A stretch of 64,000 bases of DNA from Escherichia coli (GCF_003334405.1 NZ_QOWM01000007.1), one strand, 5' to 3'; positions 5,231-55,778 are shown, numbered from the stretch's first letter. Program-made: numbers and translations. The notes: generated by a model from the sequence alone, not told the origin.

Positions 5231-5524
5231 TTACATATCCGGGCATTCTACCTTACCCAACGCTTCCCAATAATTGCTCTGATTATTACGTTCCATCGCC
5301 ACGATGGCCTCGCGTATATGTTGTTTATTGTTTTCATCTGACAACATTAACTTTTCCCACGCTTCATCTGATAATGACGCCTGTGGCGTGCAAATTTTAC
5401 GTAAATCTTGTAATACCGTGGTTTTCTCTTTTGCGGACTGCAGTGAGCTAAAAGGCGACTCGGCGTATACGATGCCTGGCATAGCGAAAAAAGTGAAAAT
5501 AAGCAGTAGTGTCGTTGGTTTCAT
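5231..5524 (-). CDS. yicS: small secreted protein YicS
   Basis: 97-aa ORF with N-terminal signal peptide (MKPTTLLLIFTFFAMPGIVYA). Confidence 0.8.
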   Translation of the reverse strand: MKPTTLLLIFTFFAMPGIVYAESPFSSLQSAKEKTTVLQDLRKICTPQASLSDEAWEKLMLSDENNKQHIREAIVAMERNNQSNYWEALGKVECPDM

Positions 5525-5745
5525 GGATTCAACCTTTTACAAATGTGTATCGAATGAAGCATAAGTGTAGTTTGCTTTCATCGCTCTCATCATGCTGTAC
5601 GAAACGCGCTTGCGTGGTCAGTAAGAAGTGCCAGACTTTATATTCCACTTTTATTCCTTTTTATTCTTATCGATAGCGTTTCGTTTTTTAAACCGCAGCG
5701 ACCTTACCGCTATAGTCAGGTAATCATTAATAAAAGGATAAAAAA

Positions 5746-6564: not shown

Positions 6565-6567
6565 TTC

Positions 6568-7491: not shown

Positions 7492-7601
7492 TTTTCCCTC
7501 TGCATACTGTTTTGTCGTTTATGTATGCAGGCATGATAGCAAAAATGGCGAGGATGGCTCTGTTTGCGCCACGCCGATTTTTCTTAGCCCAGACTGGTGA
7601 G

Positions 7602-8786: not shown

Positions 8787-9422
8787 TCTTCTGAATCACC
8801 GGGCGAAAAAATATAACTGAGTTACAAATAAGTACCAGTCGAATGAGTATTGTATTAAGAATTTTTGAGTATCGCTGATACAACCAGAAAGCAATGCTAG
8901 CGCAATATTATAGGGCCAGCAATTGAGATTATTAGTAAAAGCATGTTAAGAATTAATTACCGAATTTATATATTAATTATAGTAAGGCAATGAGCTATTT
9001 TTGATAGTAAAAATAAAACAAGTTGATTTGATATATTAAATGAACAAATTAATCTTGATGGCAGTCTGATTATTGGTGAAGTTTATAGTCAGTTTTTTTC
9101 GCCAGCGGTTAAAGAAATAGAATAGTCGTATAAAAAAGGGTGTTCTGGGGCGAGTAAAACAACATCTTCACCTTAATGGCGATACAGTTGGCTGAGAGTC
9201 AGCAGGGGGGCAAATCACCTGCAAATAAACACGGCGCATACTGGCGTGAATATCGCGGATGCGTTCGAGGACAGAAGAACCGACAGGCGGATTCTTCAGC
9301 CGCTCATCGTCCATCACAAAACCTTAGACCAGGTATTCCTGAAGCCGATTGAATATTGAGCAGTAGAAAATATCTGGATTGACAGTATTACAAGGGGTTG
9401 GAGAACGTCAGGAGAGGCATTT

Positions 9423-9517
9423 TGGCGGAAGATCACAGGAGTCGAACCTGCCCGGGACCGCTGGCGGCCCCAACTGGATTTGAAGTCCAGCCGCCTCACC
9501 GGAGACGACGATCTTCC
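9423..9517 (-). tRNA. selC: tRNA-Sec (selenocysteine, anticodon UCA)
   Basis: The reverse complement of 9423..9517 reads GGAAGATCGTCGTCTCCGGTGAGGCGGCTGGACTTCAAATCCAGTTGGGGCCGCCAGCGGTCCCGGGCAGGTTCGACTCCTGTGATCTTCCGCCA, the 95-nt E. coli selC tRNA with long variable arm and encoded CCA. Confidence 0.97.
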
Positions 9518-37519: not shown

Positions 37520-37558
37520 CAGTATTCGGGTAGCTGTTGAGCCTGGGGCGGTAGCGTG
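37520..37558 (+). promoter_or_regulatory. JUMPstart sequence containing the ops element (GGCGGTAG, 37547..37554) in the waaQ leader
   Basis: cagtattcgggtagctgttgagcctggggcggtagcgtg matches the JUMPstart consensus; ops is the RfaH recruitment site. Confidence 0.85.
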
Positions 37559-37605: not shown

Positions 37606-38676
37606 GTGGAAAAGCCATTTCGAAAAATCCTGGTCATAAAGATGCGATATCACGGAGATATGTTATTAACTACTCCTGTAATCAGTACACTCAAGCAGAA
37701 TTATCCCGACGCAAAAATCGATATGCTGCTTTACCAGGATACAATTCCGATTTTATCTGAAAACCCAGAAATTAATGCACTCTATGGTATAAGCAATAAA
37801 GGTACGGGAACATTCGATAAAATTAAAAATGCACTTTCACTGATAAAAACTCTGCGTGCGAATAATTACGACCTGGTCATTAATCTTACGGATCAGTGGA
37901 TGGTGGCCCTGCTGGTACGTTGTTTACCTGCTCGTATGAAAATATCGCAGCTTTATGGTCATCGGCAGCATGGCATTTGGAAAAAAAGCTTTACACACTT
38001 AGCGCCTATACACGGTACACATATTGTTGAGCGTAATTTGTCGGTCCTTGAGCCATTAGGTATTACCGATTTTTATACTGAAACAACCATGAGTTACGCC
38101 GAGGATTGCTGGAAGAAAATGCGCCAGGAATTAGATGCACTGGGCGTGAAAGATCATTATGTCGTCATCCAGCCGACAGCCAGACAGATATTTAAGTGCT
38201 GGGACAACGATAAATTTTCTATGGTTATCGATGCGTTGCAACATCGTGGTTATCAGGTTGTGCTGACTTGTGGCCCTTCGGCAGATGATCTCGCTTGCGT
38301 AGATGAAATTGCACGAGGCTGCCAAACAAAACCTATTACCGGCCTTGCCGGTAAAACACGTTTTCCTGAACTGGGCGCATTAATTGATCATGCAGTGCTC
38401 TTTATTGGTGTGGATTCTGCGCCGGGGCATATTGCAGCGGCTGTGAAGACGCCAGTTATTAGCCTGTTTGGGGCCACTGATCATGTATTCTGGCGTCCAT
38501 GGACCGAGAATATTATTCAGTTCTGGGCGGGGAATTATCAAAAAATGCCTACCCGGCACGAACTTGACCGCAACAAAAAATATCTTTCTGTTATTCCAGC
38601 GGAAGATGTCATTGCCGCTACGGAAAAGCTGTTGCCAGAAGATGCACCTTCAGCTGACAGGAATGCGCAATTATGA
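37606..38676 (+). CDS. waaQ: LPS heptosyltransferase III (GT9)
   Basis: Matches WaaQ; ORF track starts at the GTG at 37606 (356 aa); the start recalled for the K-12 protein would be the ATG at 37642 (344 aa). Confidence 0.88.
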   Translation: MEKPFRKILVIKMRYHGDMLLTTPVISTLKQNYPDAKIDMLLYQDTIPILSENPEINALYGISNKGTGTFDKIKNALSLIKTLRANNYDLVINLTDQWMVALLVRCLPARMKISQLYGHRQHGIWKKSFTHLAPIHGTHIVERNLSVLEPLGITDFYTETTMSYAEDCWKKMRQELDALGVKDHYVVIQPTARQIFKCWDNDKFSMVIDALQHRGYQVVLTCGPSADDLACVDEIARGCQTKPITGLAGKTRFPELGALIDHAVLFIGVDSAPGHIAAAVKTPVISLFGATDHVFWRPWTENIIQFWAGNYQKMPTRHELDRNKKYLSVIPAEDVIAATEKLLPEDAPSADRNAQL

Positions 38677-39797
38677 TCGTGGCATTTTGCTTATATAAAT
38701 ATTTTCCATTTGGTGGGCTACAGCGTGACTTTATGCGTATTGCCTCAACAGTTGCCGCACGGGGCCACCATGTTCGGGTATATACACAGTCGTGGGAAGG
38801 CGATTGCCCGGAAGCATTTGAGCTTATTCGCGTACCGGTTAAATCCCATACTAACCATGGACGTAATGCAGAATATTATGCCTGGGTTCAAAACCATCTG
38901 AAGGCACATCCCGCTGATCGCGTTGTTGGCTTTAATAAGATGCCTGGGCTGGATGTTTATTTTGCCGCCGATGTCTGTTATGCCGAGAAAGTGGCGCAAG
39001 AAAAGGGATTTTTCTATCGTTTAACATCGCGCTATCGCCATTATGCTGCATTCGAGCGAGCGACTTTCGAACATGGTAAATCGACGAAACTTATGATGTT
39101 GACCGATAAGCAAATCGCCGATTTTCAGAAGCATTACCAAACTGAACCAGAACGTTTTCAAATTCTTCCCCCTGGTATCTATCCTGACAGAAAATACAAC
39201 GCGCAAATCCCAAACAGTCGTGAAATTTATCGCCAGAAAAATGGCATCACTGAACAACAAAACTTATTGCTGCAGGTTGGTTCAGATTTTGGTCGTAAAG
39301 GTGTGGATCGCTCAATTGAAGCTTTGGCATCGTTACCAGAATCGTTACGCCATAATACGTTGTTGTTTGTTGTTGGCCAGGATAAACCGCGTAAATTTGA
39401 AGTGCTGGCAGAAAAACTCGGTGTGCGTAGTAAAGTGCATTTCTTTTCCGGGCGGAATGATGTGTCTGAATTAATGGCAGCCGCTGATTTATTAATGCAT
39501 CCCGCTTATCAGGAGGCTGCAGGTATTGTTCTCCTTGAGGCAATTGCCGCGGGATTACCTGTGTTGACGACTGCGGTATGCGGATACGCACACTATATCA
39601 CAGATGCTAATTGTGGAACGGTCATCGCTGAACCTTTCTCCCAGGAACAATTAAATGACGTTTTACGTAAAGCGTTAACTCAATCTCCATTGCGCATGGC
39701 CTGGGCGGAGAATGCTCGGTATTACGCCGATACTCAGGATTTATACAGCCTGCCGGAGAAAGCGGCAGATATCATTACAGGTGGTTTAGATGGTTGA
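38673..39797 (+). CDS. waaG: LPS glucosyltransferase I (GT4)
   Basis: 374-aa GT4 ORF matching WaaG; overlaps the waaQ stop (ATGA). Confidence 0.95.
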
Positions 39798-40587
39798 ATT
39801 AGAAGAGCCACTTGCCACACTCTGGCGTGGTAAAGATGCCTTTGCAGAAGTTAAAAAACTGAATGGCGAGGTCTTCCGTGAACTGGAGACGCGTCGCACA
39901 TTACGCTTTGAACTGGCCGGCAAAAGTTATTTCCTCAAATGGCACAAAGGGACGACCCTAAAGGAGATTATAAAAAATCTGCTCTCATTGCGGATGCCCG
40001 TTTTAGGTGCAGACAGAGAGTGGCACGCTATTCATCGACTGCATGATGTCGGTGTTGATACGATGCACGGAATAGGATTTGGTGAAAAAGGGTTAAATCC
40101 ATTAACTCGCACATCATTTATTATTACCGAAGATCTCACTCCCACAATTAGCCTTGAAGATTATTGTGCAGATTGGGCGGTCAACCCGCCTGATGTACAT
40201 ATTAAGCGTATGCTGATCGCGCGTGTGGCAACCATGGTGCGCAAAATGCATGCAGCAGGGATTAATCACCGTGATTGTTATATCTGCCACTTTTTACTCC
40301 ATTTGCCATTTACTGGCCGGGAAGATGAATTAAAAATTTCGGTTATCGATCTGCACCGGGCACAGATACGTGCAAAAGTACCACGTCGTTGGCGGGATAA
40401 AGATTTGATTGGTTTATATTTCTCATCAATGAATATTGGTCTGACGCAGAGAGATATCTGGCGATTTATGAAGGTTTATTTTGGGATGCCTTTACGCGAT
40501 ATTTATAGACTTGAGATTGATTTACTTAAAAAGGCAAGGATTAAAGCAGGAAAAATAGAAGCAAGAACAATAAGAAAAAACTTGTAA
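39790..40587 (+). CDS. waaP: LPS core heptose(I) kinase
   Basis: 265-aa kinase-like ORF matching WaaP; overlaps the waaG 3' end. Confidence 0.95.
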
Positions 40588-40619
40588 ATAGTATTTTATT
40601 ACAAAAAGGGATTCTAAAA

Positions 40620-41600
40620 TTGTTGAAATATAGAAACTTCGTTGCTAAGAAGAAAAATTTATACCAAAACGAAGTGTCGTATGTTAAAAATTTACATATT
40701 GCACTATGCTTTGACCGTGAATTCATAATGCCAGCGGGTGTTGCATTATATTCAATTATATCCAACAATAGACATATTAACCTTCATTTTCACCTTCTTA
40801 TATCAGGCATAGAAGAAAAGGAGTGTTCAGCTTTTTACGAACTAGAAGGTCCTAATACATCAATATCTGTATATTATATAACTGATAAATTTGACATTAA
40901 TCCGGATACATTAGTTCTTGGTATTCCTTTATCAACATGTTTACGTTTTTTAATCCCAGAAGTTATTGATGATAAAATAAATAAGATACTTTATCTTGAC
41001 TGTGATGTCATATGTAATGGTCCTTTAGATGAACTGGTTGATTATAATTTAAATGCTGATATTGCATGTGTAATTCCAGATTCGCCAGAAATGCAAGAAC
41101 GTGTAAAAAAATTAGACTATGGCATTGAGTTTATTAATTATTTTAATGCCGGGGTTATGTTTATTAATACCAGCGAATGGAAAAAAAATAATATAACACA
41201 AAAAGCGTTAGAAATGATCAACAGTGGAAAAGTATATAGGTATGCAGATCAGGATGTGCTCAATATTTTACTTAATGGACGAGTGCATTACCTTGATAAG
41301 AAGTACAATAATAAGACAACATTGTCAGTACGATGTGATGAAGAACAAAAAAACTTGCCCAACACAATTATAATGCATTATGTTACCCAGAATAAACCAT
41401 GGTACAAAATATTTAGAGCACAAAATTTTGATCATTATTTTTCAAATTCTCCTTGGAAGAACCATAAAAGAAATCTAGCTCCATCATCAAGTGAGATTAG
41501 GTTAAAGTCTAAAGTTTTTTGGCTAGAAGGAAAATATTGTAAAGCCATTTCTTATTATTATAAGTATTTACTTGTTAAATTATTTGGCTTAAAGATTTAG
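40620..41600 (+). CDS. GT8-family LPS outer-core glycosyltransferase (paralog 1, at the position waaS occupies in K-12)
   Basis: 326-aa ORF with GT8 motifs seen directly: YLDCDVIC (DxD), YFNAGVMFIN, ADQDVLN, QNKPWYK; TTG start per ORF track, so the start is uncertain; N-terminal region is divergent (ALCFDREF where the other two have AYGxDxNY-type). Confidence 0.75.
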   Translation: MLKYRNFVAKKKNLYQNEVSYVKNLHIALCFDREFIMPAGVALYSIISNNRHINLHFHLLISGIEEKECSAFYELEGPNTSISVYYITDKFDINPDTLVLGIPLSTCLRFLIPEVIDDKINKILYLDCDVICNGPLDELVDYNLNADIACVIPDSPEMQERVKKLDYGIEFINYFNAGVMFINTSEWKKNNITQKALEMINSGKVYRYADQDVLNILLNGRVHYLDKKYNNKTTLSVRCDEEQKNLPNTIIMHYVTQNKPWYKIFRAQNFDHYFSNSPWKNHKRNLAPSSSEIRLKSKVFWLEGKYCKAISYYYKYLLVKLFGLKI

Positions 41601-41613
41601 CTGGAATGAAATT

Positions 41614-42693
41614 ATGAAAATAGCCTTTATTGGCGAAGCTGTTTCTGGATTTGGCGGCATGGAAACAGTCATTCGTGATGTTATTACTACCTTCAGGCAA
41701 CAACATATCCAAAGTGAAATTTTTTTCTTTTGTCGTAATGACAAAATGGATAAGGGATGGCTGGAAGGTATTAAGTACTCGTGTTCATTTTCCAATATTC
41801 GCTTAGGTTTTTTGCGTCGCGCGAAACATATTCATGCTTTAAGCAAATGGCTTCATGATTATCAGCCAGATGTTGTTATTTGTATTGACGTGATCTCGTG
41901 TTTGTATGCGGCCAAAGCTCGTAAAAAATCGGGGATTGATGTACCTGTATTTTCATGGCCGCATTTTTCTTTAGATCATAAAAAACATGCCGAATATATC
42001 ACCTGTGCCGACTATCATTTAGCCATCAGCTCTGGTATTAAACAGCAAATGATTAGCCGGGGTGTACCAGAATCGACAATAAACGTTATTTTTAATCCCG
42101 TTGAGGCGAAAAATTCAGTCATTCCTGCACCCGGGGAAGGCGAAACGGCAACATTCATTTATGTTGGGCGCATGAAATTTGAAGGCCAAAAGCGCGTAAA
42201 AGATCTGCTTGATGGCTTATCACAAGTGCAAGGTGACTGGAAACTTCATGTATTGGGAGATGGCTCCGATTTCGAAAAATGCCAGGCTTATGGTAGAGGA
42301 TTAAATATTGATGATCGAATTGTCTGGTATGGTTGGCAACAACATCCCTGGAAATTAGTTCAGCAAGATATTAAAAAAGTGAGTGCATTATTACTCACGT
42401 CATCTTTTGAAGGTTTCCCAATGACTCTACTTGAAGCCTTGTCGTGGGGGATCCCTTGTATCAGTGCAGATTGTGTCTCCGGGCCTGTTGATATCATTCA
42501 GCCTGATGTTAATGGTCATTTATATCAACCGGGGGATATGACCGGTTTTGTTGCTCTTCTCAATAAATACATAGCCGGTGAAATTCACATCGCACATGAA
42601 AAAATTCCGGCGTCGATCGATAAATTTTATCAACCGAAATATTACGACAGATTGCAAAAGATAATTATTTCTGTTATTTCCCGGAGGAAATAA
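41614..42693 (+). CDS. waaB: UDP-galactose:(glucosyl)LPS alpha-1,6-galactosyltransferase (GT4)
   Basis: 359-aa ORF starting MKIAFIGEAVSGFGGMETVI, collinear with recalled WaaB; GT4 EX7E-type C-terminal region. Confidence 0.85.
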   Translation: MKIAFIGEAVSGFGGMETVIRDVITTFRQQHIQSEIFFFCRNDKMDKGWLEGIKYSCSFSNIRLGFLRRAKHIHALSKWLHDYQPDVVICIDVISCLYAAKARKKSGIDVPVFSWPHFSLDHKKHAEYITCADYHLAISSGIKQQMISRGVPESTINVIFNPVEAKNSVIPAPGEGETATFIYVGRMKFEGQKRVKDLLDGLSQVQGDWKLHVLGDGSDFEKCQAYGRGLNIDDRIVWYGWQQHPWKLVQQDIKKVSALLLTSSFEGFPMTLLEALSWGIPCISADCVSGPVDIIQPDVNGHLYQPGDMTGFVALLNKYIAGEIHIAHEKIPASIDKFYQPKYYDRLQKIIISVISRRK

Positions 42694-43712
42694 TGCAGCA
42701 GGTTTTTTTCCAGGAGACTGAGTTTCTCAATTCGGTTATTGATTATAATCATAAAATAGAAGCAGAAAATCTTTGTCTGGATATTGCTTATGGGACTGAC
42801 AAAAATTTTCTTTTTGGATGCGGAATATCGATTGCTTCAATATTAAAATATAATGAAGGAAATCAATTATGCTTTCATATTTTTACTGATTATTTCGGTG
42901 ATGACGATCGCAAATATTTTGATGCCCTGGCCAGGCAATATAAAACAAGAATTAAGATATATTTAATTAATGGTGATCGACTCCGTTCATTACCCTGCAC
43001 CAAGAACTGGACTCATGCTATTTATTTTCGTTTTGTTATCGCCGATTACTTTTTTAATAAAGCACCCAAAGTTCTTTATCTGGATGCAGATATTATTTGT
43101 CAGGGAACTATAGAACCACTTATCAATTACACGTTTTCTGAACATACAGTCGCAATGGTTGTTACAGAAGGACAAAAAGACTGGTGGGCAAAACGTGCTC
43201 ATTCGTTAGGTGTTGCTGGGATTGCTAATGGTTACTTTAACTCCGGTTTTTTACTGATTAATACTAATCAATGGACGAATGAGCGGGTTTCTGCACGGGC
43301 CATTGCAATGTTAAGTGATCCAGAGATAGTCAAAAAAATAACACATCCTGATCAGGATGTATTAAATATGTTATTGGCAGACAAACTTGTTTATGCTGAT
43401 ATTAAATATAACACTCAGTTTAGTTTAAATTATCAACTAAAAGAAAGTTTTAAAAACCCAGTAACTAACGATACAGTTTTTATTCATTATATTGGTCCAA
43501 CTAAACCCTGGCATGACTGGGCCTGGGATTATCCAATATCACAAGCTTTTATGGCGGCAAAAAATGCTTCACCATGGAAGGATACTGCGTTATTGAAACC
43601 GGTTAATAGTAATCAATTAAGATACAGTGCTAAACATATGTTGAAAAAAAAGCAATATATCAAAGGATTTGACAACTATCTTTTGTATTTTATAAAAAAG
43701 CTAAAGCATTAA
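42693..43712 (+). CDS. waaO: GT8-family LPS outer-core glucosyltransferase (WaaO/WaaI-like, by motif and position)
   Basis: 339-aa ORF with motifs IAYGTDKNF, YLDADIIC, YFNSGFLLIN, PDQDVLN, GPTKPWH; start overlaps the waaB stop; the name is assigned by synteny only. Confidence 0.7.
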   Translation: MQQVFFQETEFLNSVIDYNHKIEAENLCLDIAYGTDKNFLFGCGISIASILKYNEGNQLCFHIFTDYFGDDDRKYFDALARQYKTRIKIYLINGDRLRSLPCTKNWTHAIYFRFVIADYFFNKAPKVLYLDADIICQGTIEPLINYTFSEHTVAMVVTEGQKDWWAKRAHSLGVAGIANGYFNSGFLLINTNQWTNERVSARAIAMLSDPEIVKKITHPDQDVLNMLLADKLVYADIKYNTQFSLNYQLKESFKNPVTNDTVFIHYIGPTKPWHDWAWDYPISQAFMAAKNASPWKDTALLKPVNSNQLRYSAKHMLKKKQYIKGFDNYLLYFIKKLKH

Positions 43713-43724
43713 TACTGATAATCT

Positions 43725-43848
43725 ATACTCTAAATAATTCGAGTTGCAGGACAAAAAGCCAGTGGCGTTTTGAGGAACGCTTGCGTTGGCCCTGAAATGC
43801 CGAGTAACTCGCCGATGCAGCACATGCAACTTGAAGTATAACGAGTAT
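43725..43848. repeat. ERIC/IRU-related imperfect palindromic element with divergent core
   Basis: Termini atactc...ttcgagttgca and tgcaacttgaagtataacgagtat are inverted complements and resemble the ends of the ERIC copy at 51001..51133; occupies the 163-bp gap between two GT8 genes. Confidence 0.45.
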
Positions 43849-43875
43849 ATAAAGTAATGATATAAGGATAGCCTT

Positions 43876-44892
43876 GTGAACTCATTTCCTGCCATAGAGA
43901 TAGATAAAGTTAAAGCCTGGGATTTTAGGCTTATTGATGAAAATACTGCTGAAAGTTTAAATGTTGCCTATGGTGTCGATTCCAATTATCTTGATGGTGT
44001 AGGTGTTTCCATTACTTCAATTGTCATTAATAATCGACATGTTAATCTTGATTTTTATATTATTGCTGATGTTTATAACGACGATTTCTTTCAAAAAGTT
44101 GAGAAACTTGCTGAGCAATACCAATTAAGAATCACACTTTATAGAATAAATACTGATAATCTTCAGTGCCTGCCTTGTACACAAGTCTGGTCAAGAGCAA
44201 TGTACTTCCGTTTATTTGCTTTTCAATTATTGGGAGTAACACTTAATCGTTTGCTTTATCTTGATGCCGATGTAGTTTGTAAGGGAAATATTAGTCAACT
44301 ATTGCATTTAGAGTTTAATGGAGCGGTGGCTGCAGTAGTCAGGGATGTAGACCCAATGCAGGAAAAGGCGGTAGTCAGATTATCTGATCCTGAACTTCGG
44401 GGGCAGTATTTTAATTCTGGTGTCGTTTACTTAGACCTAAAAAAATGGACAGAAGCAAAACTAACCGAAAAAGCACTGTCTATTCTTATGAGTAAAGATA
44501 GTATTTATAAGTATCCTGACCAGGACGTTATGAATGTCCTACTAAAAGGGATGACAATATTCCTGCCACGTGAGTTCAATACTATATATACAATAAAAAG
44601 TGAGTTAAAAGATAAAACGCATCAAAAATATAAAGAGTTGATAAAAGAGGATACTCTTCTTATTCATTATACTGGGGCCACCAAGCCGTGGCACAAATGG
44701 GCAATTTATCCATCGGTAAAATACTATAAAATAGCTTTAGAAAGATCCCCCTGGAAAGATGACTCACCACGAGATGCAAAATCAATTATTGAATTCAAAA
44801 AAAGATATAAACATCTGTTAGTGCAACATCATTATATCTCAGGACTCATTGCAGGAGTGTGTTATCTTTGCCGAAAATATTACCGTAAATAA
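43876..44892 (+). CDS. waaJ: GT8-family LPS outer-core glucosyltransferase (WaaR/WaaJ-like, by motif and position)
   Basis: 338-aa ORF, GTG start with AAGGA SD 7 nt upstream; motifs VAYGVDSNYL, YLDADVVC, YFNSGVVYLD, PDQDVMN, GATKPWHKW; the name is assigned by synteny only. Confidence 0.65.
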   Translation: MNSFPAIEIDKVKAWDFRLIDENTAESLNVAYGVDSNYLDGVGVSITSIVINNRHVNLDFYIIADVYNDDFFQKVEKLAEQYQLRITLYRINTDNLQCLPCTQVWSRAMYFRLFAFQLLGVTLNRLLYLDADVVCKGNISQLLHLEFNGAVAAVVRDVDPMQEKAVVRLSDPELRGQYFNSGVVYLDLKKWTEAKLTEKALSILMSKDSIYKYPDQDVMNVLLKGMTIFLPREFNTIYTIKSELKDKTHQKYKELIKEDTLLIHYTGATKPWHKWAIYPSVKYYKIALERSPWKDDSPRDAKSIIEFKKRYKHLLVQHHYISGLIAGVCYLCRKYYRK

Positions 44893-44909
44893 CATTTAAC
44901 TGGTTTAAC

Positions 44910-45608
44910 ATGATTCAGAAGAATAAAATCAAAGATTTAGTTGTTTTTACCGATGAAAATAACTCAAAGTATCTCAATGTATTAAATGACTTTCTTTCTT
45001 ATGATATTAATATCATCAAAGTTTTTCGTTCTATAGATGATACAAAAGTCATGCTTATTGATACCGATTACGGTAAATTGATACTTAAAGTTTTTTCGCC
45101 TAAAGTAAAACGCAACGAACGTTTCTTTAAATCTCTTTTAAAGGGAGATTATTATGAACGCCTTTTTGAGCATACTCAAAAAGTGCGTAACGAGGGGCTA
45201 CATTCTCTCAATGATTTTTATTTGTTGGCAGAACGGAAAACATTACGTTTTGTCCATACTTATATCATGCTTATCGAATATATCGATGGCGTAGAGTTGT
45301 GTGATATCCCCGATATTGATGAAACTTTAAAAAATAAAATTCAACAATCAATTCGTTCATTACACGAACACGGTATGGTATCTGGTGATCCTCACCGCGG
45401 TAATTTTATTATTGAAAATGGTGAAGTACGCATTATTGATCTTTCAGGAAAACGGGCATCTGCACAACGTAAAGCGAAAGATCGTATTGATTTAGAGCGA
45501 CATTATGGTATTAAGAATGAGGTTAAAGATCTCGGTTATTATCTTTTAGTTTATCGTAAAAAAATACGTAATCTTATGCGGCGTTTGAAAGGGAAGCCAG
45601 CACGATAA
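44910..45608 (+). CDS. waaY: LPS core heptose(II) kinase
   Basis: 232-aa kinase-like ORF (HGMVSGDPHRGNFII) matching WaaY. Confidence 0.88.
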   Translation: MIQKNKIKDLVVFTDENNSKYLNVLNDFLSYDINIIKVFRSIDDTKVMLIDTDYGKLILKVFSPKVKRNERFFKSLLKGDYYERLFEHTQKVRNEGLHSLNDFYLLAERKTLRFVHTYIMLIEYIDGVELCDIPDIDETLKNKIQQSIRSLHEHGMVSGDPHRGNFIIENGEVRIIDLSGKRASAQRKAKDRIDLERHYGIKNEVKDLGYYLLVYRKKIRNLMRRLKGKPAR

Positions 45609-45679
45609 AGTAAAAGTCTTACATTTAAACGTCTTCGTCAGGACATTTCTATGCGGAGTTCTTATTTCACAGGTTTATC

Positions 45680-46489
45680 ATGAAGAATATTAGATACATT
45701 GACAAAAAAGATGTTGAAAACCTGATAGAAAGTAAAACGTCTGATGATGTTATTATTTTTCTTTCCGGCCCCACATCGCAAAAAACACCATTGTCAGTGC
45801 TGCAGACAAGGGATGTTATTGCTGTCAATGGTTCTGCACAATATCTATTAAGTCATAATATTATTCCCTATATTTATGTACTTACCGATGTTCGCTTTTT
45901 ACATCAACGGCGTGATGATTTTTATAAATTTAGCCAGAGAAGTCGTTATACCATCGTAAATGTTGACGTTTATGAACATGCTTCTGAAGAAGATAAGCGG
46001 TACATCCTTCAAAACTGCCTGGTACTACGTTCATTTTACCGCAGAGAAAAAGGTGGATTGATCAAGAAGATCAAGTTTAATATTTTGAGCCGAATTCATA
46101 AAGAGCTCCTGATCTCTGTACCTTTTTCTAAAAAAGGTCGTCTGGTTGGCTTTTGCAAGGATATTAACCTCGGTTATTGTTCATGCCATACCGTTGCTTT
46201 TGCTGCAATCCAAATAGCCTATTCGCTGAAGTATGCTCGTATTATCTGTTCAGGCCTTGATTTAACGGGTAGCTGTTCGCGTTTCTATGATGAAGATAAG
46301 AATCCTATGCCCTCAGAGTTGACTCGGGATTTATTCAAAATTTTACCATTTTTCCGTTTTATGCGTGAAAATATAGAAGATATCAATATTTATAATTTAT
46401 CCGACGATACTGCAATTCAATATGATATTATTCCCTATATGAAAATATCCGAAATTGAAGAGCCGTGTGTTTATGAAAAAATAAGCTAA
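45680..46489 (+). CDS. waaZ: LPS core biosynthesis protein WaaZ (Kdo III-related)
   Basis: 269-aa ORF starting MKNIRYIDKKDVENL, collinear with recalled WaaZ. Confidence 0.8.
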   Translation: MKNIRYIDKKDVENLIESKTSDDVIIFLSGPTSQKTPLSVLQTRDVIAVNGSAQYLLSHNIIPYIYVLTDVRFLHQRRDDFYKFSQRSRYTIVNVDVYEHASEEDKRYILQNCLVLRSFYRREKGGLIKKIKFNILSRIHKELLISVPFSKKGRLVGFCKDINLGYCSCHTVAFAAIQIAYSLKYARIICSGLDLTGSCSRFYDEDKNPMPSELTRDLFKILPFFRFMRENIEDINIYNLSDDTAIQYDIIPYMKISEIEEPCVYEKIS

Positions 46490-46541
46490 TATTTTATATG
46501 TGTTTATTACGTGTTATAAATTATATTGGAGTTGGCTAATA

Positions 46542-47684
46542 ATGATTAAAACAATAATATTTACCGTCACACCAATATTTTCTATACCGCCAAAAGGAGC
46601 TGCAGCGGTTGAAACATGGATTTATCAGGTCGCAAAAAGACTTTCGATTCCAGTAACTATCGCCTGTATTCGAAACGAAGGTTACCCAACCTACACAAAA
46701 GTAAATGATCACTGTGATATTCACTACATTGGTTTTAGTCGAGTCTATAAACGACTTTTCCAAAAGTGGACTCGACTTGATCCTGTGCCATATTCTCAGC
46801 GTATTTTAAATACCCAACCTAAAAACACTGATCCGAAAGACTCTGTTATTGTTATCCACAATAGCATGAAGCTGTATAAACAGATTCGTAGCAGAAGCCC
46901 TCACGCGCAGCTAGTTATGCATCTTCATAATGCTTTCGAGCCAGGTGAGTTAGACAAAAATGCAAAGATAATTGTTCCTAGCCAGTTTCTTTTCGATTTC
47001 TATTCGGAAAAAATGCCTGATGCAAATATTGCTATTGTGCCTAATGGTTTTTGTTCTGAATCGTATGAACAAAATAATACTGAAGATTTGAGGCAGAAAC
47101 TGAACATTGATGCAAATGATACCGTGTTATTATTTGCAGGAAGGATATCACCAGATAAAGGTTGCCTGATGCTTATGGAGGCTTTTAATCAGCTGAATAA
47201 GATACAAGATAACCTCAAACTGGTGATTGTCGGAGATCCTTTTGCCAGTAAAAAAGGCGAAAAAGCTGAATATCAGAAAAAAGTTCTGGATGCAGCGAAA
47301 GCTATTGGAGCGCAATGCATTATGGCGGGTGGACAGCCTCCAGAGCAGATGCATAACTATTACCGTTTAGCAGATTTAGTTGTTGTTCCTTCTCAGGTAG
47401 AAGAAGCTTTTTGTATGGTAGCTGTTGAAGCGATGGCGGCAGGTAAACCAGTGCTTGCCAGTCAAAAAGGTGGAATTAGTGAGTTTGTTCTGGAAGGAAT
47501 TACAGGCTATCACCTTGCAGAGCCTATGACATCTGAAAGTATTCTCGCGGATATTAAGCGCGTTTTGGCGGATGCTGACAGAGCTCAAATTGCTAAAAAT
47601 GCCCGAAATTTTGTTTTCTCAAAATATAGCTGGGAACATGTTACTCAGCGTTTTGAAGCACAAATACAAGACTGGTTTGGTTAA
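46542..47684 (+). CDS. waaK: GT4-family LPS outer-core glycosyltransferase (WaaK-like, terminal GlcNAc transferase of R2/Salmonella cores)
   Basis: About 380-aa product from MIKTIIFTVTPIFSIPP (ORF track starts 14 codons earlier); GT4 motifs (EAFCMVAVEAMAAGKPV); not a GT9 heptosyltransferase like K-12 WaaU. Confidence 0.75.
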   Translation: MIKTIIFTVTPIFSIPPKGAAAVETWIYQVAKRLSIPVTIACIRNEGYPTYTKVNDHCDIHYIGFSRVYKRLFQKWTRLDPVPYSQRILNTQPKNTDPKDSVIVIHNSMKLYKQIRSRSPHAQLVMHLHNAFEPGELDKNAKIIVPSQFLFDFYSEKMPDANIAIVPNGFCSESYEQNNTEDLRQKLNIDANDTVLLFAGRISPDKGCLMLMEAFNQLNKIQDNLKLVIVGDPFASKKGEKAEYQKKVLDAAKAIGAQCIMAGGQPPEQMHNYYRLADLVVVPSQVEEAFCMVAVEAMAAGKPVLASQKGGISEFVLEGITGYHLAEPMTSESILADIKRVLADADRAQIAKNARNFVFSKYSWEHVTQRFEAQIQDWFG

Positions 47685-47702
47685 AAATTATTGGATTTGA
47701 AG

Positions 47703-47740
47703 AGCCTGCCTGAACTTAATGTCAGGCAGGCTTTTTTTTA
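47703..47740. terminator. bidirectional rho-independent terminator between waaK and waaL
   Basis: agcctgcctga-acttaatg-tcaggcaggct followed by T8; the waaL stop codon lies within the T-tract. Confidence 0.75.
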
Positions 47741-48955
47741 TTTATTCCGCATTGCTAACAGTAAACCAACAATCAAGCCAATTGGTTTGAGATCAACTTC
47801 CTCGAAGTTACCTCGAATAATATAAAAGCTTACAAGCGTTAAAAATAGTAGTAATTGACCATTATAAGGAGTGACGACAACTGTTTTAAACGTTGCATTA
47901 GCTGTCTCTTTGATAATAGAGCCATACAGATAAAGTAAAGCGAGTAGTCCAGCCAAACCCGCTGCAAACCAAATTGACAAAACAACGTTGTGTGGCCCAA
48001 TGGATTGCCTGAACTTCCATGACGGAAAATCTACAACACGCTTATTATATATTGCATGGTAAATATCATCGCCGTAGCCATATCCCTTAAGAGGATTTTC
48101 CATAATTAATGTCCACGCCGTACCTTGAGTACCATTGGTATAGCGATAAGAACTGTCGGTCTGTTGAAGTTTATAAATAAGCCTGTCTTTACCAGCATGA
48201 TCACCTTTATAGGTAAATACACCCACTGCGGCAACAGAAATAACGATGGAAGTCAGCATCAATAATTTCCACTGACGATTTAAGATTAACCATAGCAGAG
48301 TCACTATGAATACTGCCAGCCATGCACCACGAGACAGCGTTCCTAATAGCAGAAATAAGAAAACTGCACTAAAAATTACGAATGCTATTTTATAAGAGGT
48401 TTTCTTGATAAGCCAAAGGTTTAATAATGCTGGAAACAGAAACACCATTGAATCGGAAATACTACGGTGTTCATAGGTGGAAAATGGCATTATTCCTTTA
48501 TTATAATCCTGAATATAAAGAATAAGTTCAACAAGACAACGTAAGCCAAGTCCGGTAACTAATGAGTATAGTACAATTTTACCAATGCTTTCATTATCTT
48601 CATCTTTTAATAATGCAGGTATAAGTAAACTATAGGCCAAAAATCCTTTAAGTACCGTATTACTGAATTCTTTAAAACTGATTTTCAGATCAGGTGATAT
48701 AAAAGTAGCATATAAAAGAATGAGTGATAGTGCCAGGACACTATAAAAAAGATTATTTTTATAGAGTACTTTAAATGTTCCCGGAGCACGAGAAACTTGA
48801 TAGATTACCGTAATAATCATTAGTATAGATATGATGTGTTTATAACGGGTTATACCATCAAGGAAAAAGGTTGCAATAAAGAGGAATACCAACGCTTTAT
48901 TCCAGTACGGTTTCCACTTTTCTTTATTACGTAGCGCCAGCGAGGCTGTTAACAT
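47738..48955 (-). CDS. waaL: O-antigen ligase
   Basis: 405-aa polytopic membrane ORF at the conserved waaL position; AT-rich. Confidence 0.88.
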   Translation of the reverse strand: MLTASLALRNKEKWKPYWNKALVFLFIATFFLDGITRYKHIISILMIITVIYQVSRAPGTFKVLYKNNLFYSVLALSLILLYATFISPDLKISFKEFSNTVLKGFLAYSLLIPALLKDEDNESIGKIVLYSLVTGLGLRCLVELILYIQDYNKGIMPFSTYEHRSISDSMVFLFPALLNLWLIKKTSYKIAFVIFSAVFLFLLLGTLSRGAWLAVFIVTLLWLILNRQWKLLMLTSIVISVAAVGVFTYKGDHAGKDRLIYKLQQTDSSYRYTNGTQGTAWTLIMENPLKGYGYGDDIYHAIYNKRVVDFPSWKFRQSIGPHNVVLSIWFAAGLAGLLALLYLYGSIIKETANATFKTVVVTPYNGQLLLFLTLVSFYIIRGNFEEVDLKPIGLIVGLLLAMRNK

Positions 48956-48993: not shown

Positions 48994-49950
48994 TCAGGAA
49001 TTGATTTTATTAAATACCGTTTCTGCAGTCAGATGAGCAAGATCTTTATCTGGTGCCCTACAAACCACCTGATTCTTCCCATATCCGCCAATTAATCCCG
49101 GATCGGTTGGTCCATAAACCGTGATATTCGGTCGATCCAGTGCTGCAGTTAAATGACTTAACCCAGTGTCTACCGATACCACGAATTTCGCTCCGGCCAG
49201 CACACGGGCAACACCTTCCAGACTCATCTTCGGCAATACTTCAACATAAGCAAATCCTTCCGCCAGTCGTTTCGCCCGTTTTTCCTCATGCGGCGCACCC
49301 CACGGAAGTTTAATGCGAATCCCTGAATCTGCCAGTAAACCAATCAATTCTCGCCAGTGTTCTTCCGGCCAGTGTTTATCATCACGGGTCGTCGCATGAA
49401 GAAATACGGCATATTCGCCAGCATCTGTAGGCAGGTTCGTCAGAAAATGCTGTGCGATAGCATAATCGCCCTGGGTTTGCGGTTTGCTATAGCCCAGACT
49501 TTTGGCAAAAAGTTCGCGGATGCGTTCTACGGCGTGCTGCTGTTTTGCAATATGATGTTTACGATTGTAAAACAGGCTGGCTAAAGGTTCGCGAGCGGTT
49601 TGCCAGTCCATTCCATGCTTTACGCCATGCGCCAGACGCGTCACCAGCGCCGCGCTTTTTACCAGCCCCTGAGCATCGATAACTGCGTCATAGTTCTCTG
49701 CTTGTAGCGCTTCACGAAACGCTTTGCGTTCAGCTTTTATGGGGGCCGAGAACCAGGCTTTACGCCAGCGACGTATTGCCACAGGAATAACTCGCTCAAC
49801 GGCGGCGTGCCAGGAAGGAATCTGTGCGAACCCTTCTTCCACCACCCAGTCAAACTTAATCCCTGGGATTGCCTGCTGGGCATCAGTGAGTGCGGGCAAC
49901 GTATGGAGAACATCGCCCATCGACGATGTTTTAACGATCAAAACCCGCAT
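48994..49950 (-). CDS. waaC: LPS heptosyltransferase I (GT9)
   Basis: 318-aa ORF starting MRVLIVKTSSMGDVLHTLPALTDA; C-terminal approximately 25 residues differ from the K-12 sequence I recall. Confidence 0.93.
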   Translation of the reverse strand: MRVLIVKTSSMGDVLHTLPALTDAQQAIPGIKFDWVVEEGFAQIPSWHAAVERVIPVAIRRWRKAWFSAPIKAERKAFREALQAENYDAVIDAQGLVKSAALVTRLAHGVKHGMDWQTAREPLASLFYNRKHHIAKQQHAVERIRELFAKSLGYSKPQTQGDYAIAQHFLTNLPTDAGEYAVFLHATTRDDKHWPEEHWRELIGLLADSGIRIKLPWGAPHEEKRAKRLAEGFAYVEVLPKMSLEGVARVLAGAKFVVSVDTGLSHLTAALDRPNITVYGPTDPGLIGGYGKNQVVCRAPDKDLAHLTAETVFNKINS

Positions 49951-49953
49951 CCG

Positions 49954-51000
49954 TCAGGCTTCCTCTTGTAACAATAGAGAGTTGAGTTCTTCCAGCACGC
50001 GCTGGGGAGTAATGTCGATCAAGCTCTGGTGATAACCTTCTGCGGCGTCGCCTTTGCGTACTTTGTGATAGCCGGTAATCAGGCGGATCACGCGCGCTTT
50101 ATGGGATAGCGGCGGTGTGAAGTCCGGGCTACTCGGACCATACAGGGCAACCAGCGGACGATTGAGCGCCGCCGCAACGTGCATCAGGCCAGAATCGTTA
50201 GTGACAATGGCTTTACAGGCTGCAATCAGGATAACCGCTTGATCAAGCTGTGTTTCCCCCGCCAGGTTCCGGCACCATGCCTGCTGCTCGGTATTTAAAG
50301 CGGCAAGAATCTCATTGCCCGCTTCATGATCTTTCGCCGAGCCAAACAGAACCACTTGATAACCTTCATCAATCAGTTGCTTTGCCAGTTCCGCATAGTG
50401 GTAGTGTGGCCAGCGTTTTGCCGGACCAAACTCCGCACCCGGGCAAAAACCAATCATTGGACGTTCTGATGAAAGCGAAAATTGATTACAGGTATATGAT
50501 TTTTCACCTTCGCTCACCTGCAACTGCGGCCATAACAATGGCTGCGGCAGATCTTGTGCGGTACGCATAATACCTTTGTCATAGGCCAGCGCCACATAGC
50601 GTTCCACCATCAGCGGCCAGGCTTCTTTATCCAGCACACGCACATCGTTGAGTAAACCGTAGCGCATTTCGCCGCGCCAGCCGGTGCGATGAGGAATACC
50701 CGCGAAGAAAGGCACTAATGCGGATTTGAAGGAGTTGGGTAAAACGTAGGCGCGGTCGTAACGTTTTTCGCGCAGGCTATGACCCAGCTTGCGGCGTTCG
50801 CCAATTTCCAGCGCCCCGTGACCAAGCGGCATAGGAATGGCTTCGTTAACTTCCGGCATCCGCGATAATAATGGACGGCACCATGCCGGTGCCATCACGT
50901 CGATTATCGCCTGGGGATAGCGCGCCTGGAGCGTGCGATAGAGACTTTGCGACATCATCATGTCGCCAACCCATGACGGGCCGATCACCAATATTTTCAT
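49954..51000 (-). CDS. waaF: LPS heptosyltransferase II (GT9)
   Basis: 348-aa ORF starting MKILVIGPSWVGDMMMSQS. Confidence 0.95.
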   Translation of the reverse strand: MKILVIGPSWVGDMMMSQSLYRTLQARYPQAIIDVMAPAWCRPLLSRMPEVNEAIPMPLGHGALEIGERRKLGHSLREKRYDRAYVLPNSFKSALVPFFAGIPHRTGWRGEMRYGLLNDVRVLDKEAWPLMVERYVALAYDKGIMRTAQDLPQPLLWPQLQVSEGEKSYTCNQFSLSSERPMIGFCPGAEFGPAKRWPHYHYAELAKQLIDEGYQVVLFGSAKDHEAGNEILAALNTEQQAWCRNLAGETQLDQAVILIAACKAIVTNDSGLMHVAAALNRPLVALYGPSSPDFTPPLSHKARVIRLITGYHKVRKGDAAEGYHQSLIDITPQRVLEELNSLLLQEEA

Positions 51001-51133
51001 TCACTTCATCCTTCAAGCTGTCTCTGCGGCGGCTGCCTGCGTTCACTCCGGTCACTTACTTTTGTAAGCTCCCGGAGATTCACTTAGTTGCTGCCTTGAT
51101 ACCGCTCGAATGATTTTGTGAATTTACGTTGAT
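51001..51133. repeat. ERIC (enterobacterial repetitive intergenic consensus, IRU) element
   Basis: The minus strand carries GTGAATCTCCGGGAGCTTACAAAAGTAAGTGACCGGAGTGAACGC, matching the ERIC1R/ERIC2 primer-site core (GTGAATCCCCAGGAGCTTACAT / AAGTAAGTGACTGGGGTGAGCG) with 3 mismatches each; about 130 bp, imperfect palindrome; boundaries approximate. Confidence 0.8.
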
Positions 51134-52060
51134 GTCGCGATTCAGCCAGGCCATGTATTCCGTTACGCCTTCGGCAACGGTTTTGAACGGTTTGTCATAA
51201 CCCGCCGCGCGCAGATTCGTCAGATCTGCCTGCGTGAATGCCTGATAGCGGCCTTTCAGTTTATCCGGGAACGGAATGTATTCGATCTGGCCTTTCTTGT
51301 GATAAGCAAGCGTTGCATCGGCTACCGCCTGGAAGGATTCCGCACGACCAGTACCGAGGTTGAAGATGCCGGAAACGCCATTTTCCAGGAACCACAGGTT
51401 TACATCTGCCACGTCGCCAACATAGACGAAGTCGCGTTTAAAGTTCTCGCTACCTTCGAACAGCTTCGGTGATTCACCGTTATTAAGCTGGGTGTTGAGA
51501 TGGAAAGCGACGCTCGCCATGCTGCCTTTATGGCCTTCACGCGGTCCATAAACGTTGAAATAACGGAAGCCAACAATCTGTGAGTTTGCTTCCGGCAGAA
51601 TTTGACGAACATATTCATCAAACAGGAATTTCGAGTAACCGTAGACGTTCAACGGTTTTTCGTACTCGCGGGATTCAATAAAGTCGGAAGTGCGACCGCC
51701 GTAAGTGGCTGCGGATGAAGCGTACAGGAACGGGATTTCACGCTCCAGGCAGTAGTGCAGCAGCTCCTTGGAGTATTGATAGTTGTTATCCATCATATAC
51801 TTGCCGTCCCACTCGGTGGTGGAAGAGCACGCGCCTTCGTGGAAAATCGCTTCGACATCGCCGAACTCTTCGCCAGCCATAATCTGGATCAGGAAGTCTT
51901 CCTTATCCATATAGTCTGCGATATTCAGGTCCACCAGGTTCACAAACTTGGTGCCGTCTTTCAGGTTGTCCACCACCAGAATATCGGTGATGCCTTTGTC
52001 ATTCAGGGCTTTAACGATGTTGCTGCCGATAAAGCCCGCGCCGCCGGTAACGATGATCAT
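51080..52060 (-). CDS. hldD: ADP-L-glycero-D-manno-heptose 6-epimerase (C-terminally extended by read-through into ERIC)
   Basis: 326-aa ORF starting [19 protein letters not shown] (Rossmann fold); from memory the K-12 protein is 310 aa ending ...WLNRDA, here it continues ...[22 protein letters not shown]. Confidence 0.9.
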
Positions 52061-54743: not shown

Positions 54744-55778
54744 ATGATGAACAGCACCAATAAACTTAGTGTTATTATTCCGTTATATAATGCGGGCGAT
54801 GATTTCCGCACTTGTATGGAATCTTTAATTACGCAAACCTGGACTGCTCTGGAAATCATTATTATTAACGATGGTTCAACGGATAATTCTGTTGAAATAG
54901 CAAAGCATTACGCAGAAAACTATCCGCACGTTCGTTTGTTGCATCAGGCGAATGCTGGCGCATCGGTGGCGCGTAATCGTGGGATTGAAGTGGCAACGGG
55001 CAAATATGTCGCTTTTGTCGATGCTGACGATGAAGTCTATCCCACCATGTACGAAACGCTGATGACCATGGCGTTAGAGGACGACCTCGACGTGGCGCAG
55101 TGCAACGCTGACTGGTGTTTTCGTGAAACGGGAGAAACCTGGCAATCCATCCCCACCGATCGCCTTCGCTCAACCGGCGTCTTAACCGGCCCGGACTGGC
55201 TGCGGATGGGGCTTTCTTCGCGCCGTTGGACTCACGTTGTCTGGATGGGGGTTTATCGCCGTGATGTTATTGTTAAAAATAACATTAAATTTATTGCCGG
55301 ATTACATCATCAGGATATTGTCTGGACAACAGAATTCATGTTTAACGCGCTGCGTGCGCGATATACCGAGCAATCATTATATAAATATTATCTGCATAAT
55401 ACGTCAGTGAGTCGGTTGCATAGACAAGGGAATAAAAACCTTAATTATCAACGTCACTATATTAAGATTACCCGCCTGCTGGAGAAATTAAATCGAAATT
55501 ATGCCGACAAAATTATGATTTATCCGGAATTTCATCAGCAAATAACTTACGAGGCATTGCGTGTTTGCCATGCGGTGCGCAAAGAGCCGGATATTCTTAC
55601 CCGCCAACGGATGATTGCCGAGATATTTACTTCCGGTATGTATAAGCGCCTGATTACCAATGTGCGCAGCGTGAAGGTCGGTTACCAGGCGTTACTGTGG
55701 TCTTTCCGCTTATGGCAATGGCGCGACAAAACGCGGTCGCACCATCGCATTACGCGTAGCGCCTTTAATTTGCGCTAG
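54744..55778 (+). CDS. waaH: GT2-family LPS inner-core glycosyltransferase (glucuronic acid transferase WaaH/YibD)
   Basis: 344-aa ORF with GT2 motifs (LSVIIPLYNAGD, VAFVDADDEV). Confidence 0.88.
   Translation: MMNSTNKLSVIIPLYNAGDDFRTCMESLITQTWTALEIIIINDGSTDNSVEIAKHYAENYPHVRLLHQANAGASVARNRGIEVATGKYVAFVDADDEVYPTMYETLMTMALEDDLDVAQCNADWCFRETGETWQSIPTDRLRSTGVLTGPDWLRMGLSSRRWTHVVWMGVYRRDVIVKNNIKFIAGLHHQDIVWTTEFMFNALRARYTEQSLYKYYLHNTSVSRLHRQGNKNLNYQRHYIKITRLLEKLNRNYADKIMIYPEFHQQITYEALRVCHAVRKEPDILTRQRMIAEIFTSGMYKRLITNVRSVKVGYQALLWSFRLWQWRDKTRSHHRITRSAFNLR

Follow-up and report, generated by a model that had tools for sequence, protein, structure and literature searches.

A described R2-type waa locus in Escherichia coli and a tentative role for its GT8 gene wabA

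The roles of the enzymes that assemble the R2 core of Escherichia coli LPS are established pathway knowledge. The JUMPStart/ops element is the recruitment site of RfaH and, at the step at which E. coli WaaO adds Glc, Salmonella WaaI adds Gal. LgtC of Neisseria meningitidis (PDB 1GA8/1G9R/1SS9) is the structural archetype of the bacterial GT8 LPS transferases. The prototype strains of the R2 type are F632 and F576 (Heinrichs et al. 1998, J Biol Chem 273:8849, as cited in PMC13293308), and the published R2 core oligosaccharide has the composition Glc3-Gal-GlcNAc-Hep3-Kdo. LPS of the R2 chemotype is defined by the outer core GlcNAc-Glc-Glc-[Gal]Glc and by its reactivity with R2-specific antibody. 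In K-12, waaS, the gene displaced by wabA in R2, encodes a Kdo-directed rhamnosyltransferase. A typing study from 2025 (PMC13293308) gives in its supplement the gene list of the R2 reference ECOR11 (waaA-Q-G-P-wabA-B-O-R-Y...), names wabA as a gene of the R2 locus and states that WabA 'could' bring in additional modifications. Full-text literature searches returned wabA only in this paper and its preprint, and no function, acceptor or donor assigned to WabA was found in the literature searched.

Gene content and core type of the locus

The stretch of DNA analysed (64,000 nt from E. coli, GCF_003334405.1, NZ_QOWM01000007.1; denoted here as the window) carries, according to the ORF map and the RefSeq annotation of a near-identical locus, the genes waaQ-waaG-waaP-wabA-waaB-waaO-waaR-waaY-waaZ-waaK and then, in the reverse orientation, waaL-waaC-waaF. 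In the operon leader ahead of waaQ there is a JUMPStart element with its ops site (37520-37558, + strand; Rfam RF01707, with a score of 53.1 bits where 35 is the gathering score), the ops 8-mer GGCGGTAG lying inside it at 37547-37554. The same RefSeq annotation identifies waaQ (37606-38676; heptosyltransferase III, GT9), waaG (38673-39797; glucosyltransferase I, GT4) and waaP (39790-40587; HepI kinase), all on the + strand and with products 98%, 96% and 91% identical in amino acids, respectively, to those of K-12.

Seven collinear + strand ORFs occupy positions 40620 to 47684, and Pfam and NCBIfam models support the series read there by a first-pass annotation: a GT8 enzyme, the GT4 enzyme WaaB, two more GT8 enzymes, WaaY, WaaZ and a WaaK-like GT4 enzyme. 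The first ORF, in the waaS position, is wabA (40620-41600), which has a TTG start and whose product matches Pfam PF01501 (E 1.6e-49) and PF08437. It is followed by waaB (41614-42693; alpha-1,6-galactosyltransferase, GT4; NF007396, 592.9 bits against a cut-off of 385; 92% amino-acid identity to K-12) and waaO (42693-43712; GT8, for the second backbone hexose, Glc II; NF011718, 572 bits against 461; Pfam Glyco_transf_8, E 5.8e-74; 88% identity to K-12 WaaO). A spacer of 163 bp (43713-43875), within which lies one copy of a dispersed repeat with ends that are ERIC/IRU-like in appearance, separates waaO from waaR (43876-44892; rfaJ in RefSeq naming; GT8, alpha-1,2-glucosyltransferase for Glc III; Glyco_transf_8, E 4.7e-66; 90% identity to K-12 WaaR/RfaJ). 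Next come waaY (44910-45608; HepII kinase; NF007684, 394.5 bits against 248) and waaZ (45680-46489; Kdo III transferase; NF007333, 548.5 bits against 473), the exact sequence of the latter being found in the UniRef cluster O68202_ECOLX 'WaaZ'. The series ends with waaK (46542-47684; GT4, LPS alpha-1,2-N-acetylglucosaminyltransferase; NF012028, 721.5 bits against 618), which RefSeq starts at the ATG at 46542 (380 aa), the ORF reaching upstream to a GTG at 46500. Pfam GT4-type domains (Glycos_transf_1 / Glyco_transf_4) are present in both WaaB and WaaK, Glycos_transf_1 being found in the latter. On the - strand lie waaL, for an R2-type O-antigen ligase (47738-48955; NF012031, 651 bits), and waaC and waaF (48994-51000; heptosyltransferases I and II), a conserved flank recognized from the RefSeq annotation of the near-identical locus and by comparison with K-12, in which GC returns to 51-54%. 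The curated cut-offs of NCBIfam equivalog or subfamily models were passed by WaaB, WaaO, WaaY, WaaZ, WaaK and WaaL.

This gene content and order are those of the R2 prototype (F632/F576; ECOR11), and the similarity extends to the nucleotide level. When the 17 kb locus was compared with that of strain 65COLEC (CP070914.1), typed as R2 in Table S1 of the 2025 study (PMC13293308), 2 mismatches were found in 17,001 nt, and the sole protein differences were two changes private to the window strain, G327D in WaaO and K4T in WaaK. In silico PCR with the typing primers (Table 2 of PMC13293308) located exact sites for the R2 pair at 46026-46046 (+) and 46615-46635 (-), yielding a product of 610 bp (46026-46635, from waaZ to waaK), which is the size published and that of the prototype. 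No site within 3 mismatches was found in the window for K12-F (the waaU primer), R1-F, R1R4-R, R3-R or R4-F; K12-R, located in the shared waaY, matched exactly, and R3-F had one site with 3 mismatches. The R2 pair was the only one complete in the window, with no complete pair for K-12, R1, R3 or R4. In addition, among 5426 complete E. coli genomes, 481 matched 8 kb of the window at an identity of at least 99%, and 501 covered at least 80% of these 8 kb. The R2-type cluster has a frequency of about 9% among sequenced E. coli.

Taken on its sequence, the outer-core block of the window is almost certainly the waa (rfa) locus of canonical R2 core-type E. coli, the type that the first-pass annotation had guessed, and no finding spoke against this assignment. 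That annotation had also raised the possibility of a new variant, to be abandoned should the locus match a known core type; with 2 nt in 17 kb separating it from an R2-typed strain, such a match is what was found. Given the R2 assignment, the locus is to be regarded as already described and its identification as a routine typing result, not as a new variant.

Relationship to the K-12 and Salmonella loci

The K-12 waa locus shares with the window the gene order and WaaQ, G, P, B, O, R, Y and Z proteins that are 88-98% identical, together with the position of the JUMPStart leader and an outer-core block that is equally AT-rich. In the window, the block from 40620 to 48955 has a GC content of 35.4% (29.7% in wabA), compared with 44.1% in waaQGP, 51.8% in waaC-waaF-rfaD (48994-52060) and 51.5% in the rest of the window, in agreement with the contrast between block and flanks noticed at first pass. 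The two loci differ, however, at several points. K-12 has waaS, which is unrelated to GT8, where the window has wabA, whose product shows no similarity to K-12 WaaS; by these comparisons, wabA is the R2 counterpart of waaS by position only. Similarly, K-12 has the GT9 gene waaU where the window has the GT4 gene waaK, and the window WaaK has no counterpart among the K-12 proteins and no match to WaaU. The waaL genes are unrelated, BLASTP with the window WaaL failing to retrieve the K-12 protein at E 1e-3, and the repeat-bearing 163-bp spacer between waaO and waaR is absent from K-12, where, as in the MB53 R2 variant, the spacer is only 39 bp long. The locus had been recognized at first pass as non-K-12, and the K-12 genes named at that point (a waaS unlike the GT8 gene of the window, and a GT9 waaU) are indeed those present in K-12.

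The comparison with Salmonella gives the complementary picture. WaaB, WaaO, WaaR, WaaY and WaaZ are 88-92% identical to their K-12 equivalents versus 55-69% to those of Salmonella, with WaaI and WaaJ just 55-57% identical to the window WaaO and WaaR, whereas WaaK and WaaL, neither of which has a K-12 counterpart, are 74% and 64% (the latter over 298 aa) identical to the Salmonella proteins. Salmonella enterica strains (serovar Infantis SARB27 and subsp. salamae-like contigs) share with the window waaK and a related waaL, and in these strains rfaP and rfaB flank a wabA orthologue that is intact and 61-64% identical. This mosaic pattern agrees with the title of the work by Heinrichs et al. (1998), cited in PMC13293308.

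The high identity of WaaB/O/R/Y/Z to K-12 could also be taken as a sign of a K-12/R2 hybrid, that is, a K-12 backbone into which waaK has been exchanged or an R2 one carrying waaU, and such hybrids do exist, as reported in 2025. The described ones, however, retain waaS, K-12 waaL or waaU, and neither BLASTP nor the primer search found any of these three in the window, which, moreover, matches the majority R2 allele at an identity of at least 99%. The joint presence of wabA, waaK and the R2-type waaL led us to reject this reading, and we give it virtually no credence.

Core assembly and the third GT8 enzyme

In the R2 pathway, RfaH would assist read-through of the long waaQ operon from the JUMPStart/ops leader, and the enzymes of the operon would successively modify lipid A-Kdo2-Hep on the cytoplasmic side of the inner membrane. 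WaaG would add Glc I, WaaP and WaaY would phosphorylate Hep I and Hep II, and WaaQ would add Hep III. The alpha-1,6 Gal side branch is attributable to WaaB, Glc II to WaaO and Glc III to WaaR, while WaaK would place on Glc III the alpha-1,2 GlcNAc cap that the R2-type WaaL would need for ligation of the O antigen. Finally, WaaZ would add a non-stoichiometric third Kdo.

Three GT8 genes are present, whereas only two backbone steps need a GT8 enzyme. The third had been read at first pass as predicting one more hexose branch, which would make the locus a new, R2-like outer-core variant, a notion that might seem to gain from the score of WabA with the WaaO/WaaI equivalog model NF011718 (183.6 bits, below the cut-off of 461). 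It faces three facts. Genomes with an R2 typing have essentially the same locus; the GT8 gene that takes the place of waaS, and that had not been assigned to a described type at first pass, is the wabA named for the R2 locus (PMC13293308); and the R2 core contains exactly Glc3, Gal and GlcNAc, all of them covered by WaaG, WaaB, WaaO, WaaR and WaaK, so that no outer-core sugar is left for WabA. A new variant with an additional branch is thus very improbable. The mass-spectrometry data consulted on R2 refer to acid-released core, from which side-chain Kdo is lost, and they are silent on a sugar in the Kdo region either way.

WabA as a candidate inner-core glycosyltransferase

The 28-31% identity of WabA to WaaO and WaaR and its low score with the WaaO/WaaI model place it, by sequence, in a separate GT8 subfamily. 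Its N-terminus, described at first pass as divergent, is indeed unlike those of WaaO and WaaR, but it is conserved among the orthologues of WabA itself. Likewise, of the motifs ascribed to all three GT8 products, DxD (D127 and D129 in WabA), DQD (210-212, with Q211) and KPW (K259-P260-W261) are invariant in the GT8 alignment, as is H253, while the expected FNSG is FNAG in WabA. The best PDB match of WabA is LgtC, with which it aligns over residues 35-264 (E 6e-17), sharing the DxD, the glutamine of DQD and the C-terminal His...KPW region; equivalents of the metal-binding DxD and His and of the catalytic-site Gln of LgtC are recognizable in the alignment. The two proteins differ in their low overall similarity, in the acceptor and in the enterobacterial GT8 C-terminal domain (PF08437) present in WabA.

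It could be argued that wabA no longer has a function and persists in the operon as a mere relic. No sugar of the R2 outer core, as published, requires the gene, and its TTG start is weak. Furthermore, the best KEGG hit for the wabA annotation of Salmonella Infantis is a Shigella protein and not an LT2 (stm) gene, suggesting that LT2 has no intact wabA, so that the gene appears dispensable in some lineages. Against this, wabA was found in 503 of the 5426 complete E. coli genomes and is a full-length ORF in all 503, and intact orthologues occupy the same position in four genera (E. coli, Salmonella, Citrobacter and Pseudocitrobacter). The dN/dS of wabA is 0.12-0.24, similar to that of neighbour genes and over saturating dS, and all catalytic GT8 residues are invariant. 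A relic is, on balance, unlikely; WabA is evidently intact and under purifying selection, and is predicted to be a functional retaining glycosyltransferase. ORF integrity and dN/dS also ruled out that wabA is a pseudogene. A mis-called start was discarded as well, since the weak TTG/GTG start aligns, and is conserved, across genera.

Relatives of WabA were also sought outside the waa loci. Hafnia has a homologue, 46% identical, in a P2-like prophage, where it adjoins the tail-fibre genes, a place typical of lysogenic-conversion genes. No close phage-borne relatives were found in the phage collection, which contained distant matches only (at most 33% identity), apart from a misfiled Salmonella contig with a chromosomal wabA orthologue (61% identity).

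The product of WabA may be an inner-core hexose and not an outer-core branch. wabA and waaZ occur together in all six waa contexts examined (two from E. coli, two from Salmonella, and one each from Citrobacter and Pseudocitrobacter), a pairing independent of whether waaK or a GT9 gene is present and of the presence of waaB. This co-occurrence, together with the occupation of the waaS position and the conserved weak start, points to an accessory inner-core role. We tentatively propose that WabA may add a sub-stoichiometric alpha-hexose to the Kdo/inner-core region in R2-type E. coli, and in such strains of Salmonella and Citrobacter as have retained wabA, in parallel with the WaaS/WaaZ-dependent rhamnose glycoforms of K-12, possibly with relevance to recognition by phage or host. 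Vinogradov et al. reportedly described, in 1999, non-stoichiometric Gal on Kdo in R2 LPS; no citable structural report of an extra sugar or of Gal on Kdo in R2 LPS was found in the accessible literature.

The contribution of these observations is modest and holds no surprise. From R2 typing follow, for this strain, the specificity of its O-antigen ligase and the relevant core-directed antibodies and core-dependent phages, and the role of WabA represents one small gap in an otherwise fully assigned R2 pathway. Once found, the function of WabA could explain why sensitivity to phages or serum differs between the R2 core and that of K-12.

Core type of the waa locus

The layout that the first-pass annotation had read between waaP and waaL (a GT8 enzyme, WaaB, two more GT8 enzymes, WaaY, WaaZ and WaaK) was matched by ORF mapping, Pfam and NCBIfam, with seven closely packed + strand ORFs filling the interval. 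The products of wabA (40620-41600; 326 aa, TTG start), waaO (42693-43712; 339 aa) and waaR (43876-44892; 338 aa) present the Pfam Glyco_transf_8 and GT8 C-terminal domains, those of waaB (41614-42693; 359 aa) and waaK (46500-47684) present GT4-type domains, and the remaining ORFs encode WaaY (44910-45608; 232 aa) and WaaZ (45680-46489; 269 aa). WaaB, WaaY, WaaZ and WaaL scored above the curated cut-offs of their NCBIfam models, and WaaO and WaaK (LPS GlcNAc transferase) were also above cut-off. The waaK ORF opens at 46500, and the RefSeq annotation of a near-identical genome sets the start at the ATG at 46542, for a 380-aa product. When the three GT8 paralogues were aligned with six relatives, the DxD, DQD and H...KPW motifs proved invariant. 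DxD, DQD and KPW had been claimed for all three enzymes; the NSG motif claimed alongside them was not common to all, since the first GT8 reads FNAG at that position. The AT-richness of the block was borne out, with 35.4% GC at 40620-48955 (29.7% in the first GT8 gene) versus 44.1% in waaQGP, 51.8% in waaC-waaF-rfaD (48994-52060) and 51.5% in the remaining window.

When region 40000-48000 was compared by megablast with 5426 complete E. coli genomes, 481 matched at 99% identity or more and 501 reached at least 80% query coverage, whereas K-12-like genomes matched 65% of the query, at 87-88% identity. The best match, 65COLEC (CP070914.1), differs at 2 positions in the waa locus (17,001 nt compared), and Trofimova et al. 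2025 (PMC13293308, Table S1) list its core type as R2. The core-typing primers published there were searched in silico in the window, allowing up to 3 mismatches. Both R2 primers found exact sites (46026-46046 and 46615-46635), predicting a 610-bp product, the published size; no site within 3 mismatches was present in the window for R3-R, either R1 primer, either R4 primer or the K-12 pair's waaU primer, and R3-F had one 3-mismatch site and no more. The first GT8 gene, which the annotation could not place in any described type, is the one named wabA at the waaS position of R2 loci, and the R2 reference ECOR11 is listed with waaA, waaQ, waaG, waaP, wabA, waaB, waaO, waaR and waaY (PMC13293308 and its supplement). 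R2 accounts for 8.15% of 4,505 typed genomes in that work and for 9.2% here, wabA being found in 503 of the 5426 complete genomes. The locus is therefore of the R2 core type: the original guess was correct but routine, and the locus, collinear with and near-identical to a described type, is already known rather than a new variant.

Leader and assembly of the core

A JUMPStart element with an ops site is located at 37520-37558, 50 bp upstream of waaQ, and is the signal by which RfaH is recruited to the long waaQ operon. In the established pathway, WaaG, WaaP, WaaQ and WaaY finish the heptose region, phosphorylate it and attach Glc I, WaaB attaches the Gal side branch, Glc II and Glc III come from WaaO and WaaR, WaaK places the GlcNAc cap, and WaaL ligates the O antigen; WaaZ accounts for a third, non-stoichiometric Kdo. 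Mass spectrometry of rough R2 LPS gave the core as Glc3-GlcNAc-Gal-Hep3-Kdo, exactly what the five outer-core transferases provide. The RefSeq/NCBIfam product name of WaaO (42693-43712), 'lipopolysaccharide 3-alpha-galactosyltransferase', describes the activity of Salmonella WaaI. Because the R2 core contains Glc3Gal1, and a Gal-adding WaaO would give Gal2Glc2, this composition implies that the name was taken over from WaaI and that E. coli WaaO transfers glucose.

Inside waaR (44367-44374, +) the sense strand has a second exact copy of the ops 8-mer (GGCGGTAG), found in the R2 allele but not in K-12 waaR; the window holds six copies versus 1.35 expected from shuffles. The copy in waaR is probably due to chance, because the TCAG that follows it does not fit the extended ops. 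Past the waa locus by 3.7 kb, after kbl-tdh, waaH (54744-55778, +) encodes a UDP-glucuronate:LPS(HepIII) glycosyltransferase, a further conditional inner-core modifier.

Mosaic ancestry and strain differences

Compared with K-12, WaaQ, WaaG and WaaP are 98%, 96% and 91% identical, and WaaB, WaaO, WaaR, WaaY and WaaZ 92%, 88%, 90%, 92% and 89%, whereas WabA shows no similarity to K-12 WaaS, and K-12 has no counterpart of either WaaK or WaaL. These two are 74% and 64% identical to those of a Salmonella enterica locus (L003), to which the other shared outer-core genes show merely 55-69% identity. This pattern matches the description as a 'hybrid of K-12 and Salmonella' that Heinrichs et al. 1998 put in their title. 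Nucleotide identity to K-12, 98.3% in waaA, falls to 86-92% across waaQ-waaZ and is back at 96.2% in waaC. This dip, together with the low GC, fits a central operon whose old allelic lineages were swapped by recombination, a general and well-known trait of waa loci that is not peculiar to this window.

Only two positions in 17 kb differ from 65COLEC, 43672 and 46552, both non-synonymous and private to the window strain (WaaO G327D and WaaK K4T), and nothing suggests a functional effect. Few public contigs encode precisely these WaaO and WaaK sequences (6 and 19), whereas the other products occur in at least 1000 contigs. The waaO-waaR spacer (43713-43875) spans 163 bp; in K-12, as in MB53 with its divergent R2 allele, it spans 39 bp. 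It holds a dispersed repeat with the ends …AATTCGAGTTGCAGGA… / …GCACATGCAACTTGAAGTATAACGAGTAT…, which look ERIC/IRU-like. Of 5426 E. coli genomes, 5411 have partial matches, at a median of 3 places each, but the full-length copy occurs only in 487, about the number of R2-type genomes. Elsewhere, tRNA-Sec (selC; 9427-9517, -), a classic island integration site, appears empty in the window, its neighbours (1-9400) resembling K-12 setC, yicL and nlpA in ORF size; in 65COLEC, otherwise near-identical, the site holds a sugar-utilisation island (GH32/OmpG-porin) along with an integrase and IS1, and collinearity between both starts at window 9408. The yicJ gene is intact in the window (460 aa) and frameshifted in 65COLEC.

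WabA, its relatives and its possible role

The third GT8 had been taken to predict an extra outer-core hexose branch, which is unsupported because the five outer-core transferases account for every outer-core sugar of the published R2 composition and leave none over. Judged by its sequence, wabA is clearly a working gene, since its ORF is full length in 503 of the 503 genomes that carry it, its catalytic residues correspond to the LgtC ones in alignment, and its dN/dS (0.12-0.24 against the divergent E. coli MB53 allele, Salmonella and Citrobacter) is similar to that of its neighbours. Orthologues with 60-66% identity occupy the same waaP-proximal place in four other contexts: salamae-like contigs of Salmonella enterica, serovar Infantis SARB27, Citrobacter, where a GT9 gene ends the operon, and Pseudocitrobacter, which lacks waaB. 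WabA is thus independent of WaaK, WaaU and WaaB; waaZ accompanies wabA in all loci examined. A non-ATG start is kept across genera, TTG in E. coli (window 40620) and Citrobacter and GTG in Salmonella (L003 6869; L005 7001 was also compared), and could keep expression low. Gene callers often clip Salmonella wabA to 290 aa, from an internal Met start.

The Pseudocitrobacter locus (L011 5019-15327), in which wabA is followed directly by two GT8 genes and a GT9 gene comes last, is another combination of the same modules. In SARB27, the intact 334-aa orthologue lies between rfaP and rfaB on a 515-kb chromosomal contig filed under a 'phages' collection (AFYI01000003.1); in its annotation the best KEGG match is a Shigella GT8 and not a gene of LT2, a hint that no intact copy exists in LT2. 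A homologue with 46% identity in Hafnia paralvei (CP014031.2; L010 8001-8969) directly adjoins the genes for the tail fibre and for tail-fibre assembly in a P2-like prophage, a classic place for lysogenic-conversion cargo, and this position makes it a candidate phage-encoded LPS-modifying GT8.

The sole statement on WabA in the literature consulted says that the enzyme 'could' introduce further modifications (PMC13293308). At the same position in K-12, waaS encodes a rhamnosyltransferase acting on Kdo in WaaZ-dependent glycoforms. The R2 mass-spectrometry composition is that of acid-released core, which keeps a single Kdo and is thus blind to substituents on side-chain Kdo. Vinogradov and coworkers reportedly described, in 1999, a non-stoichiometric Gal substituent on the Kdo of R2 LPS. 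Tentatively, as the best guess though somewhat short of an even chance, WabA may add a sub-stoichiometric alpha-hexose in the Kdo or inner-core region.
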